A DNA stretch of 5,726 nucleotides from a virus. Both the position numbers and the translations under genes were made by a program. The DNA lies in IMG/VR virus record IMGVR_UViG_3300045988_001819, positions 1-5,726 of that record; one strand, given 5' to 3'. The notes beneath the pieces are model-generated. The model was not told where the DNA came from. It saw only the letters and a program-made list of their open reading frames with translations, and ran no database searches. Positions 1-5,726 of this stretch are shown piece by piece; within the stretch, counting starts at the first letter, position 1; every line of letters begins with the position of its first letter.

Positions 1-119
1 CTCCTTTCTGTGGTTGATTTGTGCAAATACCACCGGTTCGCCAGCGCTGGAGGCAGAGCATTCCTCCTTTACATTTGGACGCCGGTTCCCCTATGTCAAT
101 TTTACCAAAAAAAAAAAAC
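1..119. repeat. Left copy of the exact 119-nt terminal direct repeat (circular-contig overlap)
   Basis: Base-by-base comparison shows identity with 5608-5726, including the A12 run at 107-118. Confidence 0.95.
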
Positions 120-147
120 GCAAGGTCAACTTTCGTCAACCTCACGT
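107..147 (-). terminator. Intrinsic terminator downstream of the 52-aa acidic ORF
   Basis: The minus-sense RNA reads ACGUGAGGUUGAC-GAAA-GUUGACCUUGCGU followed by a U11-12 run. That is a 13-bp stem with a GNRA loop. Four of the pairs are G-U, which become C-A mismatches on the other strand, so the hairpin only forms well in minus-sense RNA. Confidence 0.8.
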
Positions 148-155
148 TTTTTGGT

Positions 156-314
156 TTATCTTTCGTATTCTTTGAGTTTTTCACAGATTGCGTTTGTCCA
201 TTCGTCATCCATGTTGTACTCTTCTTTTATCTGCTCTCGGTCTTCGCTTTTCCATCCACCGTCATATAGTGCTGCTGCGCAGTTTTCAACTTCTTCTTCA
301 TAGTAGCTTTTCAT
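156..314 (-). CDS. Hypothetical 52-aa highly acidic, aromatic-rich protein (MKSYYEEEVENCAAALYDGGWKSEDREQIKEEYNMDDEWTNAICEKLKEYER)
   Basis: Hand translation runs from ATG 314-312 to TAA 158-156. AGGAGG lies 6 nt upstream of the ATG. The protein has 16 D/E against 7 K/R, and 7 Y/W. It has its own consensus promoter upstream and a strong terminator downstream. It is below the ORF-track size cutoff. Confidence 0.7.
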   Translation of the reverse strand: MKSYYEEEVENCAAALYDGGWKSEDREQIKEEYNMDDEWTNAICEKLKEYER

Positions 315-333
315 GGTGCGCCTCCTATTTTGT

Positions 334-352
334 GGTGTGCTCTTCTTACACC
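334..352 (-). promoter_or_regulatory. Candidate operator: inverted repeat GGTGT-N9-ACACC starting 3 nt downstream of the P1 -10 hexamer
   Basis: Read directly from the sequence. A repeat of the same geometry, AGTGT-N9-ACACT, sits at the same offset from the second promoter (1994-2012). Confidence 0.5.
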
Positions 353-355
353 TTT

Positions 356-384
356 ATTATACACCTAAAACATACACTTGTCAA
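356..384 (-). promoter_or_regulatory. P1: perfect consensus sigma70/sigmaA promoter (TTGACA-17 nt-TATAAT) driving the 52-aa ORF
   Basis: On the minus strand, TTGACA is at 384-379, the spacer is exactly 17 nt, and TATAAT is at 361-356. The promoter is intergenic and has an A-rich tract (GGCAAAATT) upstream. Confidence 0.75.
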
Positions 385-429
385 GTAGAATTTTGCCTAG
401 ATGGCCGTCCGGTCGGCGCTGGTGCGCCG

Positions 430-469
430 AATGAAAAGGACGGCGTAGCTTTCCGTGACTACGCCGTCC
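430..469 (-). terminator. Probable intrinsic terminator after VP4
   Basis: The minus strand reads GGACGGCGTAG-(10-nt loop)-CTACGCCGTCC, a perfect 11-bp GC-rich stem at 438-469. It is followed by TTTTCATTC and lies about 70 nt after the VP4 stop codon. Confidence 0.6.
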
Positions 470-537
470 TGTGTCCTCTATTCTGTCGTTCTTCAGCTTG
501 ACTTGTCTTTTGCTCTGCTTTTTGATCGCTGTGGCCG

Positions 538-1638
538 CTAGATTTCTTCCCGGATAAGCTTCTTAAACCTCTCTTGTATTTTCTGCTCTTCTTTGTTATA
601 ATACTCTTGTATGGTTAAGCCGTTGTTCTTTTGTAGCTTGGCAAAGAATGCGTCGTTGGCTTTTCGGCGTCGTTCTCTTTTTATTGCCTTTAGCTCGCTA
701 GACTCGGCTTTTTCTATTGTCTCTTCGATGCTCTCCATCTCGCTTTCTGTTAGTGGCTTTGCGTTGGAGTGCTCTAAATCAAATAGCTTATCAAAATACC
801 TTGGTGGTTTGCAAATCCTTCCGTTCTTTAGCTGTATCTTATCTCTTTCGTAGATTTCTGCTGCGTGTTCATAGTAATATTGTGCTCCTATTGCTGGCTT
901 TAGGCTCATATTGCACTTTTCCGGCAAAATGCCCATTTCTTCGTAAAATTTTTTTCCTTCCTTTCCGTATACTTTTTTCGTGGTGTATCTTGCTGTATAG
1001 GCCATTGCTTTCCATTCAGCTGGTGCGATGACTACATGACCCTTTCCCCAGATTTTTGTTATCCAATCTACGTTATAATAGACTGCTCCGTTTTTCCTTT
1101 TGTACTCCTTCATGTCGTTTTTTTCAATTGGCAGGTCGTATACGATCGCATGATAATGCGGTCGGTGTGTTTTCCCGCCATATTCCCCGCATTGGAAGTA
1201 CATCAAATTTCCTTTGTTAAGTTCATGGTATTCTAGATACCTTCGCAGTCTTTTCCAGAATGCTTTCATATCTTCATAGTTGAGGCTGTAATTTTCAACA
1301 AGCACTTCGCCTGTTCCTTCGTCCCATGTCATTCGATATGGGACGTTTTCATTGTCGTATGTAAGAGTTAGGAACCACGCATTTTCATGATATGGCAGTT
1401 CCATTTCCATCCTGTTTGCCCAACTGGATGCTGCTGTCATTTTGCACGCTGGACAGTGTCCGCATGGTAATAGCTGCGCTTCTTCGGTTTTCAACATTTC
1501 CAGAAGCTTCTTCTCTTTGCCGATTTCGCCTTTTTTGCTGTTGCCGTTTTGGTAGTATTTACCAGTTCTGGACAGGTACGCTTTTAGTGATATGATCTGT
1601 CCGGTGTTGAGTCGTACGAGTGGTCTTGTACATGACAT
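538..1638 (-). CDS. VP4: Replication initiation protein VP4 (HUH rolling-circle endonuclease, phiX174 gpA-like superfamily)
   Basis: Rolling-circle Rep motifs are visible: FLTLTYD (motif I), HYHAIVY (HUH, codons at 1150-1158) and AYTARYTTKK (paired Tyr codons at 997-999 and 985-987). A CGHCPAC...W.NR cysteine cluster matches what I recall for gokushovirus VP4. I place the start at ATG 1638 (MSCTRPL...). The in-frame GTG at 1653 given in the ORF track is an alternative. Confidence 0.92.
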   Translation of the reverse strand: MSCTRPLVRLNTGQIISLKAYLSRTGKYYQNGNSKKGEIGKEKKLLEMLKTEEAQLLPCGHCPACKMTAASSWANRMEMELPYHENAWFLTLTYDNENVPYRMTWDEGTGEVLVENYSLNYEDMKAFWKRLRRYLEYHELNKGNLMYFQCGEYGGKTHRPHYHAIVYDLPIEKNDMKEYKRKNGAVYYNVDWITKIWGKGHVVIAPAEWKAMAYTARYTTKKVYGKEGKKFYEEMGILPEKCNMSLKPAIGAQYYYEHAAEIYERDKIQLKNGRICKPPRYFDKLFDLEHSNAKPLTESEMESIEETIEKAESSELKAIKRERRRKANDAFFAKLQKNNGLTIQEYYNKEEQKIQERFKKLIREEI

Positions 1639-1659
1639 ATAGTTTCGCTGCACCTTCCC

Positions 1660-1706
1660 GTCACCTAGCCCCTATAACCTTCTTGATGTTATAGGGGCTA
1701 GGTGAC
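1660..1706. other. Perfect 19-bp inverted repeat with a 9-nt loop, immediately upstream of the VP4 translation start
   Basis: GTCACCTAGCCCCTATAAC (1660-1678) pairs with GTTATAGGGGCTAGGTGAC (1688-1706). The loop is CTTCTTGAT on the plus strand and ATCAAGAAG on the gene-sense strand. No U-run follows it on the gene-sense strand. Confidence 0.85.
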
Positions 1707-1752
1707 ACAATTTTTAGCTGCCGCCCAAAAAACCTAATGGATAAATGTTGCA

Positions 1753-1780
1753 GAAGTGACCGAGTTCGCTCGGTCACTTC
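1753..1780. other. Perfect 12-bp stem-loop overlapping the stop codon of the RHH gene
   Basis: GAAGTGACCGAG-TTCG-CTCGGTCACTTC. In gene-sense RNA it is followed by UGCAACAUUUAUCC, a poor U-tract, so it is at best a weak terminator or attenuator. On the plus strand it is followed by GTTTCTTT. Confidence 0.8.
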
Positions 1781-1977
1781 GTTTCTTTGAGCTTCCACTT
1801 ATTGGCGAATGTGTATCCCGTTTCCTTTTCGCAGTAGCATACTATTGCTTCTCGTATGATGTCGCTGGTGGTCATCTTCTGCCCCCTGTTCATCATTTCG
1901 TGTTCGAGACTTTCTAGTGCTACCTGCTCTCTGTCGGTAAGATTGACATTAAATCTCTTCGTGATCTGCGTTCTCAT
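1774..1977 (-). CDS. Ribbon-helix-helix (CopG/Arc/MetJ-type) DNA-binding protein, 67 aa; putative transcriptional repressor
   Basis: The sequence reads as strand-helix-turn-helix. KRFNVNLT has the alternating beta-strand pattern, DREQVALESLEHEMM would be helix 1, a G-containing turn follows, and TSDIIREAIVCY would be helix 2. This compares with CopG KRLTITLSESVLENLEKMAREMGLSKSAMISVALENY. AGGAGG lies 5 nt upstream of ATG 1977. The gene has its own near-consensus promoter. Confidence 0.7.
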   Translation of the reverse strand: MRTQITKRFNVNLTDREQVALESLEHEMMNRGQKMTTSDIIREAIVCYCEKETGYTFANKWKLKETK

Positions 1978-1993
1978 ACTAGCCTCCTAGCTA

Positions 1994-2012
1994 AGTGTGT
2001 GATTGGTACACT
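1994..2012 (-). promoter_or_regulatory. Candidate operator: inverted repeat AGTGT-N9-ACACT starting 3 nt downstream of the P2 -10 hexamer
   Basis: Arm length, spacing and offset match the P1 repeat at 334-352. The arms differ by a paired G-to-A and C-to-T change that keeps the symmetry. Confidence 0.5.
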
Positions 2013-2015
2013 CAT

Positions 2016-2044
2016 AATATACACCTCTTTTCTCCACTTGTCAA
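2016..2044 (-). promoter_or_regulatory. P2: near-consensus promoter (TTGACA-17 nt-TATATT) driving the RHH gene and probably VP4
   Basis: On the minus strand, TTGACA is at 2044-2039, the spacer is 17 nt, and TATATT is at 2021-2016. It begins 5 nt after the VP2 stop codon. It matches P1 at 27 of 38 positions from the -35 onward (hand count). Confidence 0.7.
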
Positions 2045-2049
2045 CTATT

Positions 2050-2988
2050 TTATGGAAGCATCGGAAGACCCGGCAGTAAGTTGAATTGGCCTTTTGCTCC
2101 AAGGCCTGCGTCAAGTCGCCCTTCGTTCTTGAACTGGTGACCTTCGGTTTTCTGTTCCTGCTGTGTGGTGCTGTCCATCCGCTCACCCAGCTGGCCAACG
2201 GTTTTTGCGCTGCTGCTTACGGTTTGCTGTTGCATCTGTTCGAGGTGCTCAGCTGTCCAGTAGTCAGAACTTTGTTTCGCGTTGTTGATGGCCGTTTGAA
2301 AGTTCTGCACGATCTGTGCGGTGTTGTTGCCGTAGTCATACATTGCCTGCATGGTTGCGTTTTTGGCTGCTGGTGCTGCCAGAGCTTGAGCGTGTGCGAA
2401 GGTCTGACCGCCACCGAGACTTCCATAGCCTCCTGATGGCGTTTGTGCCCCATAGCCGTTATAGGCTGCTAAGATAGGATTCAATCCCGCTGCTTTAAGG
2501 TCTGCCACGCCTCTCTGATAGCTGGTATTGGCCATTCTCTCTTGCCAGTTTCTTTGTTTTTGGGCTTCAGCGGAGTTGTATCGCATTGCGCTGCTTTGGC
2601 TCGCTGCGCTCATTGCATTGGATGCTAGAGCGTTTCCCATGTTGAGAAGATTGCTCATCATCCATGTACCGGTCTGCAAGTCGTTGGCAGTTTTTGCGTT
2701 CGCTGCGTTGAAGTCCGCTGCGGTTTGAGCATTGTTGCCGGTCGGCGTTCCGAGTGCTGTTGCCAGCAGATTTCCCAGTGCGCTTGTGTTGCCGGTCTGG
2801 ACGCTCCCACCTGCGCTTGTAGTGTCCTGTGCGGTGCTTCCCATGGTTGTACCGCTCTGGATAGTCGAGTTCATACTACCCTGCGTTTTGGCGCTGCTGG
2901 TGCTTCCTTTGATTGCGCTGTAGATTCCATACAGTGTGTTTGCCAGAGTTAGGCCGCCTTTGACAAGGCCCATTAGCCCGATTGCCAT
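2050..2988 (-). CDS. VP2: Minor capsid / DNA pilot protein VP2
   Basis: The N-terminus is Gly-rich and hydrophobic (MAIGLMGLVKGGLTLANTLYGIY), and the middle is a long A/G/S/T/Q-rich segment. I recognise the block NSAEAQKQRNWQERMANTSYQRGVADLKAAGLNPILA as the conserved core of gokushovirus VP2. GGAGG lies 7 nt upstream of the ATG. The gene immediately follows VP1. Confidence 0.85.
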   Translation of the reverse strand: MAIGLMGLVKGGLTLANTLYGIYSAIKGSTSSAKTQGSMNSTIQSGTTMGSTAQDTTSAGGSVQTGNTSALGNLLATALGTPTGNNAQTAADFNAANAKTANDLQTGTWMMSNLLNMGNALASNAMSAASQSSAMRYNSAEAQKQRNWQERMANTSYQRGVADLKAAGLNPILAAYNGYGAQTPSGGYGSLGGGQTFAHAQALAAPAAKNATMQAMYDYGNNTAQIVQNFQTAINNAKQSSDYWTAEHLEQMQQQTVSSSAKTVGQLGERMDSTTQQEQKTEGHQFKNEGRLDAGLGAKGQFNLLPGLPMLP

Positions 2989-3000
2989 TGCGCTTCCTCC

Positions 3001-4623
3001 TTAGATGGTATCAAGGCCCGGGATGCTGTAGATAGGCATTGCCCTTGTCCACGTCTGGTCGAAGTAGAAGTTGCAGATAAATTGACGGGATTTGTCGCTC
3101 TGAATTGCGATAGTCCGGTCAATGTTTTCCGTGCCCTCTTTAATCCAGTCGCTCGAGAGAGTTGGGAGACTCGTATACTTGTCCGCGTAGTGCCACGCGT
3201 CCAAGGTCTGCGTGTAAGTGCTGCGCATTTCTCCCGTTATCATGTTTGTTCGGTACCTATAGTCGGCCCAGGCCTCCTGGTACCCAAACACCTCCTCGTC
3301 TTTTGCGTTGCCTTGTGCGTAGATCTCCTGATTGAGTACTGCTTGTTCTCCGAGGTTTGCAAGCATTGGGTCATAGTAGGAAAAGCGTGTGCTGCGTGTC
3401 CACATTCGAGAAAGGCCCTGCTGATAGCTGTGATCAACTCGCACCGCTGCCAGACCGATGATGAAGCCATGCTCCGTTGCGCTGTACGTTGCCATGTTCC
3501 GGCTCATCGTGGTCATGGAGAATGCTGCTGTGTTGCCCTGCGGACTTGTTGAATCCGTGCTGGATGTCTGAATGACCTGATTGATGTTGATAGGCAGTCT
3601 ATACCCGCCGATGTATTCCGATCGGTCAAGCCGTGCATCTGGACTGGTGACGCCCCAAGCTCCTTGCAGGATTTCCTTGTACCGCGTGCCGGTGCGTGCA
3701 TCTCTCTCTAAGATATGCTGTACTGCGATAGCCTGCCGCAGCTCGTTGATGGTCGCGGCTGTTACGTTGCTCATGTCTGCGCCAAGTACTGGGTGCAGGC
3801 TATCGTCTCTTTCGGTGTATACCTGTGCTGGTTTCGCTCCGCTTGTTTTGTCTCCGTTTACGCCTGCAAAGTAAGGGATGAAGTTTGTTATTAAGTTTAG
3901 GTCTGTGTTGTCCAGTTTTTCTTTGAGGCTTGCTGTGCCGTATCCATAAATCGGCGCCGCTCCTGTCATCGGCAGCGTCACTCCCTCGCCTTTCTGAGGA
4001 CTCGGTAAGCAGCTCGTGTAGTAATCTTTGTATTTACAGACTTTGAGCGGCAGGCCTCCGGCTTCGGCGTCGGTGAGTGCCGTTCCTGCGTTGCTTCCTG
4101 CGGTCGTGGCGTCTGATTTGCTCATCGTGACAGGCTGCTGCAGATTTTCGTCTCGAAACCATTCGTTCCAGATTTTGGCATAGGCCCTGAAAGGCAAGCT
4201 GTTCACCTGAAGGTTTTCTACTCCGGTCGGAATGCCGAAGTAATCCGCCAGCGTGCCCACTTTCCAGCCTCCGGCCGGTGCGGTCGTTTTCGGAGTCGTG
4301 TACTCTACCGTTTCCGCCCAGAAGGTCGAGTCGTTCTGGCCCATGAGATTTTCGAAGTGCTCCCACAGCAGCCGCGACGGCACGAAGAAGAAGTAAAAGT
4401 CACAGTAGCAGTTATCCATGACAGGATACAGCGGTGTGCTCATACGCATCAGAGCATTCAGATCGATCTTTGCCGTGTCTGCCGGGAGTACCTCATCACA
4501 GTAGATCGGGACGAGATCACCCTCATTCATCGTGGTCAGGAGAGAATAGTCTCGTTTGAAGCGTGCGCGCGGCACGTTTGCATGAGGCACTTGGCTGTAG
4601 TGTTGTTCAGCGTTGCGGTTCAT
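3001..4623 (-). CDS. VP1: Major capsid protein VP1 (Microviridae F-type jelly-roll capsid)
   Basis: The 540-aa protein carries family hallmarks. These are the N-terminus ...RARFKRDYSLLTTMNEGDLVPIYCDEVLPADT, then CKYKDYYTSCLPSPQKG, TINELRQAIAVQHILERDARTGTRYKEILQGAWGV and SEYIGG. A segment of about 80 aa between PQKG and TINELR fits the gokushovirus insertion loop. Confidence 0.95.
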   Translation of the reverse strand: MNRNAEQHYSQVPHANVPRARFKRDYSLLTTMNEGDLVPIYCDEVLPADTAKIDLNALMRMSTPLYPVMDNCYCDFYFFFVPSRLLWEHFENLMGQNDSTFWAETVEYTTPKTTAPAGGWKVGTLADYFGIPTGVENLQVNSLPFRAYAKIWNEWFRDENLQQPVTMSKSDATTAGSNAGTALTDAEAGGLPLKVCKYKDYYTSCLPSPQKGEGVTLPMTGAAPIYGYGTASLKEKLDNTDLNLITNFIPYFAGVNGDKTSGAKPAQVYTERDDSLHPVLGADMSNVTAATINELRQAIAVQHILERDARTGTRYKEILQGAWGVTSPDARLDRSEYIGGYRLPININQVIQTSSTDSTSPQGNTAAFSMTTMSRNMATYSATEHGFIIGLAAVRVDHSYQQGLSRMWTRSTRFSYYDPMLANLGEQAVLNQEIYAQGNAKDEEVFGYQEAWADYRYRTNMITGEMRSTYTQTLDAWHYADKYTSLPTLSSDWIKEGTENIDRTIAIQSDKSRQFICNFYFDQTWTRAMPIYSIPGLDTI

Positions 4624-5116
4624 TCCTTATTTTCTCCTTTCTGCACAGTTTCATCTGTGCCAGGATTGGGCTTTTTTGTTCATCCTGCTGAATTTTGATG
4701 CCCATCTTGTTTAGCCATTCTTTTTCACCGGCTGTTGCCATCCAGTTTTCGAAGTTCATACCGAAAGCCTGACGAATATTCAGCGGAAGCTGATTGAACT
4801 GCTCCCGTTTCTCGTTCATCATGTTCATGTATTCGGTGTAGGTCTGCGGTAGTTTGCTGGTGTCGATGTACCATCCCGGTTTTGCCAGTACACTTTCGTC
4901 GCCGGCAGCGTACCGGCTCAGAATTGCCATGACGTCGCATTCGTCTTTATAGCTCTGGATTTTCTCGTAGGTGTCCACTTCGCCCACCTTTTCCAGATAT
5001 GGCTGCCCTCGGTCGTCATACCGTTCTTTGTATTCCGGTTCAAACCTGTTGCCCGGCTCGTTCGGCAGCGCCAGCGGTTTTTCGTCCTCGTAGGGTTTAA
5101 AGATTCTTACTCCCAT
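4607..5116 (-). CDS. VP3: Internal scaffolding protein VP3
   Basis: The 169-aa protein sits directly upstream of VP1 and overlaps its start by 17 nt. The motifs YKDECDVMAILSRY and QLPLNIRQAFGMNFENWM match my recollection of the Chlamydia-phage-type scaffold family. GGAG lies 7 nt upstream of the ATG. Confidence 0.8.
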   Translation of the reverse strand: MGVRIFKPYEDEKPLALPNEPGNRFEPEYKERYDDRGQPYLEKVGEVDTYEKIQSYKDECDVMAILSRYAAGDESVLAKPGWYIDTSKLPQTYTEYMNMMNEKREQFNQLPLNIRQAFGMNFENWMATAGEKEWLNKMGIKIQQDEQKSPILAQMKLCRKEKIRNEPQR

Positions 5117-5360
5117 TGAGCTGCTCCTTTTTCATGAGTTCGATATTGTACATGAGCATCGGCAGCGCCAGCGGCTTGATCTGGCCGCTTTCGTTGTCGT
5201 ACTTGCCCAGAAGATAGACCCGCTTATCCTCGCAGTCGGCTTTCTCCATTTCCTGTGCCATCCATCTGAAGGTGCGGTCGGCTACCTTTTCATTGACCAC
5301 TATCAGATTGCCGAAGATGCCAGATAGTTCGTCTTTTACTGCGTATACCTGAAATTCCAT
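5097..5360 (-). CDS. Conserved small non-structural protein (gokushovirus ORF5/VP5-type, function uncertain)
   Basis: The 87-aa sequence MEFQVYAVKDELSGIFGNLI...ADRTFRWM...YLLGKYDNESGQI fits a pattern I recall from this family: V-Y/F-x-V-x-D-x-K/L-x-G-x-F-G, then A-x-R-x-F, then L-G-x-Y/F-D-x-x-x-G. GGAG lies 7 nt upstream of the ATG. It overlaps the VP3 start by 20 nt. Confidence 0.55.
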   Translation of the reverse strand: MEFQVYAVKDELSGIFGNLIVVNEKVADRTFRWMAQEMEKADCEDKRVYLLGKYDNESGQIKPLALPMLMYNIELMKKEQLNGSKNL

Positions 5361-5372
5361 GATGATTCTCCT

Positions 5373-5492
5373 TTACAGACGGATGCCGCCGCGCGACGGC
5401 TTCGGGTTGATGTTGATTTTCTTTGTCTTTTTTGCGGTGTTGGTAAACACTCGCTTATCCTTTTTCGGATTGACCGGCATTCTGTGAGCCAT
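5373..5492 (-). CDS. Small basic DNA-binding/packaging protein (phiX174 J-like, gokushovirus ORF8-type), 39 aa: MAHRMPVNPKKDKRVFTNTAKKTKKININPKPSRGGIRL
   Basis: Hand translation runs from ATG 5492-5490 to TAA 5375-5373. The protein has 12 K/R in 39 aa and a C-terminal RGGIRL. AAGGAGG lies upstream (GGAGG 8 nt from the ATG). It is below the ORF-track cutoff. Confidence 0.7.
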   Translation of the reverse strand: MAHRMPVNPKKDKRVFTNTAKKTKKININPKPSRGGIRL

Positions 5493-5599
5493 TATTTATC
5501 CTCCTTATCCAGTCCCATGGCGTGATAGATCTTGTCCAGCATCGCAAGGATCTTCCTTAACTGATTAAAAATTCCGCGGATGTCTTTCAAAGTGATCAT
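5492..5599 (-). CDS. Hypothetical 35-aa protein (MITLKDIRGIFNQLRKILAMLDKIYHAMGLDKEDK), translationally coupled to the J-like gene
   Basis: ATG 5599-5597 is preceded by AGGAGG at 7 nt. Its stop codon overlaps the next start as TAATG. The sequence looks like one amphipathic helix. No homology is recognisable by eye. Confidence 0.45.
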   Translation of the reverse strand: MITLKDIRGIFNQLRKILAMLDKIYHAMGLDKEDK

Positions 5600-5607
5600 G
5601 GCAGCAC

Positions 5608-5726
5608 CTCCTTTCTGTGGTTGATTTGTGCAAATACCACCGGTTCGCCAGCGCTGGAGGCAGAGCATTCCTCCTTTACATTTGGACGCCGGTTCCCCTA
5701 TGTCAATTTTACCAAAAAAAAAAAAC
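5608..5726. repeat. Right copy of the exact 119-nt terminal direct repeat (circular-contig overlap)
   Basis: Identical to 1-119. It begins inside the Shine-Dalgarno region of the 35-aa ORF and ends after the A12 run. Confidence 0.95.
5678..5706 (-). promoter_or_regulatory. Weak candidate promoter P3 ahead of the structural operon (equivalent to 71-99)
   Basis: On the minus strand, TTGACA (5706-5701) sits just downstream of the T12 run and GGTAAAA, which could act as an UP element. The hexamer 17 nt downstream is AAATGT, only 2/6 to TATAAT. Confidence 0.25.

Follow-up and report, generated by a model that had tools for sequence, protein, structure and literature searches.

The stretch of DNA analysed here raises the question of what kind of gene can lie between a perfect promoter and a hairpin terminator in a 5.6-kb phage genome, and what such a gene may do for the phage. 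The stretch, called the window below (5,726 nucleotides (nt), positions 1 to 5,726 of the IMG/VR record IMGVR_UViG_3300045988_001819), is a complete circular microvirus genome of 5,607 nt plus a 119-nt terminal redundancy. All of its genes are on the minus strand, and features on that strand are given with coordinates running from high to low. The gene in question, an open reading frame (ORF) at 314–156 that encodes a 52 amino acid (aa) acidic protein (MKSYYEEEVENCAAALYDGGWKSEDREQIKEEYNMDDEWTNAICEKLKEYER), is found after the replication protein gene VP4 and before the late genes. The original prediction, made from the window sequence, described positions 384–107 as a self-contained unit resembling a moron and guessed that its product is an effector of the anti-defence type. 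By comparison of related genomes, the region is a plug-in accessory-gene slot of a gut gokushovirus-like clade, situated between VP4 and the late genes. The 52 aa protein is a good candidate for a new anti-defence protein because a close relative carries a known anti-CRISPR gene in the same slot.

Gene turnover between VP4 and the late genes

Approximately 75 non-redundant related genomes were compared, 44 of them found by VP4 homology, 10 by homology to the ORF held in the slot (the cargo) and the rest by the exact promoter pattern, which was searched in viral and metagenome contigs. A re-scan of the viral contigs with a looser promoter pattern gave no further genomes. The closest GenBank records are pig and human gut Microviridae and gokushoviruses, with about 80% nt identity. 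When the interval from VP4 to the late genes was aligned with the corresponding intervals of MG945186 and KX513873, a promoter block (CTTGACAAGTGTAT....AGGTGTATAATAAAGGTGTA) and a terminator block (AAACGTGAGGTTGAC...CCTTGCG-Tn-GGTAAAAT) were found conserved, and the ORF between them could not be aligned.

Across the approximately 75 genomes at least 10 unrelated small genes occupy the position between the promoter, P1, and the terminator, or the slot is empty or decayed. Cargo A (51–58 aa), the type found in the window, belongs to a family with the motif LYDGGW; A′ (68–84 aa) consists of longer relatives of A, and in a type termed A-basic the LYDGGW motif is replaced by R/K-RHYKS. The other cargos are B (60 aa), C (53 aa), D (60 aa, a homologue of the anti-CRISPR (Acr) protein AcrIC5), E (56 aa), F (83 aa), G (67 aa) and H (97 aa).

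The turnover is seen on closely related backbones. Genomes with at least 93% VP1 identity to the window carry cargo A in four cases (L024, L044, L078 and L086), B in L083, C in L010 and E in L009, and L045, with the same level of VP1 identity, has no P1 cassette. The reverse situation is found in L049, where cargo A is 75% identical to that of the window and VP1 and VP4 are only 42% and 33% identical. In L049 (3240–3860) the promoter and leader of the slot persist ahead of cargo A in truncated form, TTGACAAGTGGTATAAT...GAAAGGACGGTGCAAACCATG; there is no terminator, and cargo A runs straight into an M15 peptidase gene.

Slots that have decayed carry scars. In L019 and L067 the promoter directly adjoins the terminator, in L018 the −10 hexamer is fused to the last codons of cargo A, L016 retains only a 3′ remnant of cargo A without the promoter, and in L033 the −10 hexamer is deleted exactly between two GGTGTA direct repeats. 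The GC content of the cargo in the window is 39.6%, compared with 48.9% for the genome and 53% for VP1/VP2. Low GC, turnover and transfer are, at the level of the sequences compared, moron-like behaviour of the cargo. The moron-like unit proposed in the original prediction is borne out by these comparisons, since the cargo of closely related genomes is present, absent or replaced between genes that are otherwise adjacent, and has a conserved promoter in front of it and a conserved terminator after it.

Two unusual forms of cargo A were also seen. In P0018 (89 aa) and in L085, which is part of a 26.6-kb contig, the reading frame of cargo A is joined to unrelated sequence, in P0018 to the antisense strand of VP2. 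Chimeric assembly, or a genome that is rearranged, defective or concatemeric, is the probable origin of both.

In L013 and L034, which are genomes without P1, Peptidase_M15_3 genes (122–136 aa) are situated just beyond the backbone terminator. Thus the intergenic neighbourhood also hosts accessory genes of a lysis type. A slot for lysis genes was considered as the principal explanation of the locus and rejected, as the M15 peptidase genes lie beyond the terminator without P1 and the cargo has no membrane segment.

Promoter, ribosome-binding site and terminator

P1 (384–356) consists of a −35 hexamer TTGACA at 384–379, a 17-nt spacer and a −10 hexamer TATAAT at 361–356, and matches the consensus in 12 of 12 positions, as the original prediction had stated. 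Sites of the TTGACA-17-TATAAT form with no more than one mismatch are found twice in the window, compared with 0.01 expected from shuffled sequences; the second, at 2044–2016, precedes a gene for a ribbon-helix-helix (RHH)-like protein. P1 is nearly invariant in approximately 30 related genomes whatever the cargo. The cargo is therefore preceded directly by a predicted promoter of its own that is perfect, conserved and far above chance. A Shine-Dalgarno sequence, AGGAGG, read from the sequence at 326–321, is 6 nt upstream of the ATG (314–312), also in agreement with what had been proposed.

Downstream of the cargo, a hairpin at 146–119 (CGUGAGGUUGAC-GAAA-GUUGACCUUGCG) has a 12-bp stem that includes four G-U pairs and is closed by a GAAA loop; A/T runs that flank it can lengthen the stem. 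It is followed by a T12 run (118–107; U12 in the transcript), the end of a predicted intrinsic terminator, and a T run of 8–17 bases is present at this place in all relatives, those with empty slots included. The folding energy of the minus-strand RNA is −23.2 kcal/mol (z = −5.5) and that of the plus strand −12.7 kcal/mol, and thus the fold is orientation-specific. A 13-bp GNRA hairpin with a run of 11–12 U had been described originally; the hairpin, the GAAA loop, the T run and the orientation of the fold stand, and the stem is to be corrected to 12 bp with four G-U pairs and the T run to 12.

In 21 distinct versions of the hairpin, sliding the partner column lowers the paired share of cells from 87% to 30–44%. 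Double changes of the compensatory kind are seen at four pairs, and none of 500 shuffles reaches the observed covariation score. The pairing is, on this covariation, kept through compensatory changes.

The cargo thus has a predicted intrinsic terminator directly downstream, though the same terminator is also found where the slot is empty. Such genomes keep the hairpin and the T run as well as the GGTAAAAT that follows, and therefore the terminator is a backbone element and the insert consists of P1, the leader and the ORF. The T run is followed by GGTAAAAT, GATAGAAT or GATAAAAT in nearly all relatives, again with empty slots included, and a TGnTA(A/G)AAT pattern directly after the T run is likewise found in nearly all. 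In the window this sequence is TGGTAAAAT (107–99), a candidate extended −10 (TGn + TAAAAT) for the late operon that marks the 3′ edge of the slot. The arrangement suggests that TGGTAAAAT and the T run together may form a composite of a terminator and an extended −10 promoter for the late operon. The window itself is broken inside the T run of the terminator, and contigs of relatives often end there too. The terminal redundancy of the window is exact (1–119 = 5608–5726), and the T run is hence repeated at its 3′ end.

The 5′ edge of the slot is marked by a hairpin region distal to VP4 (470–405), which has a 12-bp perfect stem (470–459/448–437) and is kept with filled and with empty slots. It has the form of a GC-rich double hairpin, GGACGGCGTAG...CTACGCCGTCC followed by GGCGC-ACCA-GCGCC. 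From its sequence it could be the VP4 terminator, a complementary-strand origin of single-stranded DNA (ssDNA) replication, or both. A search of Rfam with the window gave no match.

A second promoter and the RHH-like gene

P2, the second of the two promoter sites (TTGACA-17-TATATT, an 11 of 12 match), is a predicted early promoter of the backbone that is present in relatives with or without the cassette. It is placed to drive the 67 aa RHH-like gene (1977–1774), a core gene. Consensus sequences of P1 and P2 from approximately 30 genomes each share TTGACA..rGGTGTATAwTA..gGTGTA, which extends beyond the two hexamers. At P1 the shared core (366–334) is a candidate operator or promoter-proximal element, with an AGGTGTA at 366–360 that overlaps the −10 hexamer, a second AGGTGTA at 353–347 and, in this genome, an inverted repeat GGTGT (352–348)/ACACC (338–334) downstream of the −10. 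In the window, P1 and P2 are each followed by (G/A)GTGT-N9-ACAC(C/T). The original prediction had placed the same putative operator at both promoters, and this similarity is real and conserved. P1 looks like a paralogue of P2, judging from the shared sequence. A conserved inverted repeat of the GTGTA-N7-TACAC type lies after P2, close to where its transcript is predicted to begin.

A protein of the form M(K/R)SQ..KR.N.NLT...SDIIR(D/E)AI follows P2 in almost every relative, empty slots included. Its N-terminal two-thirds are conserved among relatives, and the C-terminus is highly variable in length and sequence. Profile matches to CopG/RHH are weak, and the AlphaFold2 model from the single sequence has a predicted local distance difference test score (pLDDT) of 67, which is low confidence. 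The RHH-like protein may plausibly act as a common repressor of P1 and P2.

It had also been suggested that the cargo and the RHH gene form a pair of an acr gene and an anti-CRISPR-associated regulator gene (aca) split across the genome. This does not hold, as essentially no relative lacks the RHH gene and P2, whether its slot is filled or empty. The RHH gene is neither in an operon with the cargo nor inherited with it; it has its own promoter and is near-universal. As a cassette-linked Aca it was rejected, the gene and P2 being backbone features.

The 52 aa protein and its family

The product of the ORF at 314–156 has a net charge of −9 and 7 aromatic residues, the values originally given. 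Its 20 close homologue clusters are all on microvirus-sized contigs. Among 17 distinct microviral copies the median ratio of non-synonymous to synonymous differences (pN/pS) is 0.28, taken over 105 pairs with pS > 0.1, and variable columns are distributed over the three codon positions as 22/10/37, the third position being dominant. By these substitution patterns the cargo is a real gene under purifying selection. An AlphaFold2 model built on an 18-sequence alignment shows a three-helix bundle (H4–18, H23–32 and H37–51) with a pLDDT of 95.3. No transmembrane segment or enzyme-like features were found in the protein.

Searches of Pfam, PHROGs and NCBIfam with the 52 aa sequence gave nothing meaningful, a fold search of the PDB with the model gave no match, and a PDB profile search gave chance hits only. 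In BFVD the best matches are homologous, uncharacterised proteins of gut siphoviruses. When 1.8 billion representative proteins were searched with a profile, 347 clusters were returned at an E-value of 1e-3 or better. The same type of search in a collection of 5.8 billion proteins returned 1,436 clusters (90% identity) at 1e-5 or better, all annotated as hypothetical. The longer and fused members of this family also match no named family, there being no model in Pfam, NCBIfam or PHROGs.

The consensus of this unnamed three-helix family, termed LYDGGWR here, is aAaLYDGGWRa.Dr.eLi.EY.Lt.eeAd.ICe.L.eYE. In 51 diverse members W21 is invariant and L16, Y17, G19, G20, R22, D25, Y33, C44 and L47 are at least 90% conserved. 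The family motif, (A)ALYDGGW(R/K)..D...(I/L)..EY.(L/M)....A..IC..L..YE over approximately 45 residues, is present in the window protein as ALYDGGWK...EY.M...TNAICEKLKEYE, with K at position 22. The original prediction had tentatively tied a YDGGW(K/R) pattern to small hypothetical proteins of Firmicutes mobile elements, and the pattern does define a large uncharacterised family in Clostridia, Lachnospiraceae and Bacillota prophages.

Members of the family occur alone, in tandem or fused to varied unannotated domains, and are found in metagenome-assembled genomes (MAGs) of Clostridia, Lachnospiraceae and other Bacillota. Where the surroundings of a member were inspected, in phage and prophage contigs, it was always at a moron position of a Firmicutes prophage, in the accessory region downstream of lysis genes (holin, amidase), often with a small RHH or helix-turn-helix (HTH) gene beside or near it. 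Thus in L051 the member is followed directly by a 49 aa RHH gene, in L054 by a 66 aa ORF without a Pfam match that reads like an HTH protein, and in L050 an HTH_3 gene is found approximately 700 bp downstream. In L097 the member lies between an Amidase_2 gene and host genes, and in L094 approximately 3.6 kb past a holin-like gene and 1.6 kb before a CI-like repressor gene. In L058, a Bacillota MAG, a 56 aa member (7971–8141) lies at a prophage end after putative holin and Amidase_2 genes, 470 bp upstream of cas3 (Pfam Cas3_HD, Cas3_C) in a type I-E-like cas operon (region 8614–15554). Four further ORFs after this cas3 resemble, by eye, Cse1, Cse2, Cas7 and Cas5 of type I-E.

The A-basic cargos (L003, L004, L063, L065, L082 and L084) keep the N- and C-terminal helices of cargo A (..YEE.. 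and ..W..A(I/V)(C/S).K(L/M).E..), and ALYDGGWRS becomes E(M/I/L)(H/R)(R/K)RH(Y/C)KS. Their net charge is approximately 0 to +2, a charge reversal inside one lineage.

An AcrIC5 homologue in the same slot

Cargo D (MKYVIDQNGNNIDYEAAVNLMDNEIREELHREMAPCTEQEFYDAYCKRHEETYHEEFVVM) is carried by the sister genomes L022, L023, L068 and L081 in a slot identical to that of the window, which itself holds no member of a known Acr family. Cargo D matches the Pfam family PF22147 (Anti-CRISPR protein AcrIC5) over the full model length with an E-value of 2.7e-26 and 91.9 bits, the cut-off being 27 bits, and it matches AcrIC5 in the PDB (7YHR) with an E-value of 1.1e-11. In L022 it is situated behind TTGACAAGTGTATGCAAAAGGTGTATAAT and before a CGTGAGTCTGAC/TCAGGCTTGCG-T16 hairpin, which is exactly the slot of the window.

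AcrIC5 has homologues in Proteobacteria, Firmicutes and Actinobacteria, and these are active against divergent type I-C systems (PMC7913775). The target-DNA-binding site is where small and very acidic Acrs, AcrIC5 among them, have been described to bind (PMC10478522). In gut communities, 766 Microviridae genomes were recovered through being targets of CRISPR, and the hosts predicted for them include Firmicutes (PMC8530359).

The window protein itself gives no match to AcrIC5 in Pfam at an E-value of 1 or better, has an hhalign probability of 0.2% with it and shows no PDB fold match. Homology between the LYDGGWR family and AcrIC5 was rejected on the hhalign value. As the two proteins are unrelated, the case for an anti-defence function of the window cargo comes from the shared slot and not from family membership. 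A shared locus is a standard route for assigning function to new Acrs. The original guess of an anti-defence-type effector thus appears to gain independent support from the sister genomes.

Comparison with known systems

Morons of lambdoid phages (HK97/HK022) are extra genes with their own promoter and terminator, found between genes that are adjacent in relatives. The microviral slot shares with the morons of tailed phages a strong promoter, an intrinsic terminator, presence, absence and replacement between collinear backbone genes, and a GC content below that of the structural genes. It differs in that the carrier is a 5.6-kb ssDNA microvirus and in that P1 appears to be a paralogue of the early promoter of the phage itself. 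Furthermore, a classic moron inserts as a whole promoter-gene-terminator unit, whereas here promoter and terminator are fixed and the ORF is exchanged.

With acr loci the slot has in common a hypervariable series of small, often acidic proteins behind a strong, presumably early promoter, and an AcrIC5 homologue in sister genomes. However, the window protein has no homology to a named Acr, AcrIC5 included, and there is no aca gene in the operon, the RHH gene being a core gene 1.4 kb away with its own promoter. Ocr, ArdA and AcrIF2 are acidic DNA-mimic proteins with anti-restriction or anti-defence activity. The window protein resembles them in being very small, with a net charge of −9 over 52 residues, all-helical by prediction, encoded by a mobile element and presumably early, but it shows no sequence or fold match to them and a basic variant of the same lineage exists.

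The slot is not the feature of microviruses called a 'defensive hypervariable region', with which it was compared and from which it was set apart; that region, in the work of Kirchberger et al. from 2021, reportedly concerns the VP2 pilot protein. No earlier account of the slot, the LYDGGWR family or gokushovirus Acr genes came up when the literature was searched for the motif, and for gokushovirus or Microviridae together with moron or anti-CRISPR.

Accessory genes reported in Microviridae include methyltransferases, peptidases and small proteins without assigned function, and a global survey found the accessory repertoires of microviruses to be limited and the microviruses themselves to be isolated genetically from the wider pangenome (PMC9239249). 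The cargo of the window is like these accessory genes in being a small ORF (approximately 50–65 aa) that is patchy among microviruses and shows signs of recombination. It differs from them in being held in a defined promoter-terminator slot with at least 10 cargos. It also departs from the isolation described, as at least two slot cargos (LYDGGWR and AcrIC5) are also found in Firmicutes prophages or other bacterial mobile elements (compare PMC9239249).

Proposed function and alternative explanations

The explanation that we favour, and hold with somewhat more belief than doubt, is that the locus is an accessory-gene slot whose cargo in the window is an early-expressed protein that neutralises a component of host defence. 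In the mechanism that we infer, the backbone would supply the strong sigma-A-type promoter P1 and the intrinsic terminator, and recombination would exchange, delete or replace the ORF between them. Once the complementary strand is made, giving the double-stranded replicative form, P1 and P2 would be fired by the host sigma-A RNA polymerase. Transcription from P1 would give a monocistronic mRNA of approximately 230–240 nt ending at the U12 terminator, which would insulate the late operon that starts just downstream with the candidate extended −10. The acidic three-helix protein would then bind and neutralise a defence component, e.g. a CRISPR-Cas or restriction complex, perhaps in the way that small acidic Acr and anti-restriction proteins act by occupying a DNA-binding surface. 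A wider proposal is put forward tentatively and may well prove wrong. In it the slot would be an anti-defence island, a fixed landing pad of promoter and terminator that samples anti-defence genes from a gene pool shared with Firmicutes prophages; LYDGGWR would be a new, widespread anti-CRISPR or anti-restriction family; and cargos B, C, E, F, G and H would encode new inhibitors as well.

Several observations weigh against an anti-defence function or against the cassette as originally conceived. The link to defence comes from one annotated cargo out of approximately 10, and no homology points to any activity of the window cargo, with Pfam, NCBIfam, PHROGs and the PDB (sequence and fold) empty. 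The basic, motif-less variant occurs in the same slot, so acidity is not essential to the lineage. The terminator belongs to the backbone, so that the 'autonomous cassette' is only partly self-contained. Lastly, the LYDGGWR motif hardly varies among the more than 1,400 clusters, which come from diverse Firmicutes phages, and the domain is also found in tandem or joined to a wide range of unrelated N- or C-terminal domains, as is typical of a binding module. A module that binds a conserved host protein fits these features better than a fast-evolving, narrow-range Acr.

The last point leads to an alternative that we regard as unlikely but worth serious weight, namely that the LYDGGWR domain is an adaptor for host takeover that binds a conserved hub protein (RNA polymerase or sigma, a replication or repair protein, or a nucleoid protein) and thereby favours phage replication. 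The position of the gene behind a strong promoter of early type fits this as well. However, the cargo is dispensable, very close relatives carrying other cargos or none; a sister cargo is an Acr, and the moron positions at prophage ends are typical of accessory or defence-related genes.

The same turnover could reflect competition between mobile elements, the slot genes acting on rival phages or plasmids or protecting the infected or lysogenised cell from superinfection. Fast exchange of cargo on near-identical backbones is an arms-race signature, and LYDGGWR members at prophage ends are found where lysogenic-conversion genes reside; a 2021 PNAS study by Kirchberger et al. is said to have concluded that competition between viruses drives hypervariable regions in microviruses. 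This explanation is nevertheless improbable, for these microvirus genomes contain no integrase or other sign of lysogeny, a soluble acidic protein of 52 aa has no membrane segment with which to block entry, and AcrIC5 in the slot points to counter-defence.

A role within the phage cycle, e.g. as a modulator of the RHH repressor or of lysis timing, has little to recommend it. It could account for the core that P1 shares with P2, the promoter of the RHH and VP4 genes, and for the M15 peptidase genes in the same intergenic neighbourhood of L013, L034 and L049. But the M15 genes lie downstream of the terminator and without P1, the cargo has neither a transmembrane segment nor enzyme-like features, and its replacement by unrelated cargos (an Acr among them) and the existence of empty-slot genomes mean that no conserved role in the phage cycle is needed.

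The hardest to credit is that the promoter and ORF are incidental and that the hairpin, together with the T run and the hairpins nearby, serves primarily as a signal for ssDNA replication (a complementary-strand origin). In favour of this, the viral strand is the coding strand in Microviridae, so that these hairpins with their G-T pairs would form in virion ssDNA too, and the hairpin and T run are a backbone element kept with empty slots. Against it, a stem with T8–17 directly behind it is how an intrinsic terminator canonically looks, the promoter is invariant and perfect, and the ORF shows purifying selection and a confidently predicted fold. A dual role of the hairpin would not make the ORF incidental.

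Other features of the genome

The genes of the window are, in order on the minus strand, a 34/58 aa ORF, a 39 aa basic J-like gene, VP5, VP3, VP1, VP2, the 67 aa RHH-like gene, VP4 and the 52 aa ORF. VP3 matches Chlamy_scaf and VP1 matches Phage_F (E-value = 5e-164). The first ORF, annotated with 58 aa (5668–5492), is probably a 34–35 aa protein starting with MITLKDIRGIF, as relatives encode only that conserved part; no family was assigned to it.

Two further inverted repeats are found around the RHH-like gene. One (1660–1706) has perfectly matching 19-bp arms around a 9-nt loop and lies immediately before the VP4 start, and the other (1753–1780) is a 12-bp perfect hairpin that overlaps the stop codon of the RHH-like gene. 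From their form they are possible attenuator, terminator or replication-origin structures.

Implications

The exchange of at least 10 cargos in one conserved promoter-terminator slot, on backbones that are nearly identical, qualifies the view of microviruses as minimal, little-exchanging phages (PMC9239249). The AcrIC5 and LYDGGWR cargos are shared with prophages and mobile elements, and together with the turnover this likewise qualifies their picture as isolated. The slot is a natural and compact discovery device, in that any product of 50–100 residues encoded between the invariant promoter and terminator is a candidate inhibitor, and a large unannotated protein family of gut Firmicutes phages becomes directly testable. 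The promoter and terminator pair may also serve as a small expression module for Firmicutes. If the slot is indeed an anti-defence island, it would provide the first recognised Acr-type genes of Microviridae, to judge from the literature that was searched. The findings suggest that even ssDNA phages of 5.6 kb invest in counter-defence.

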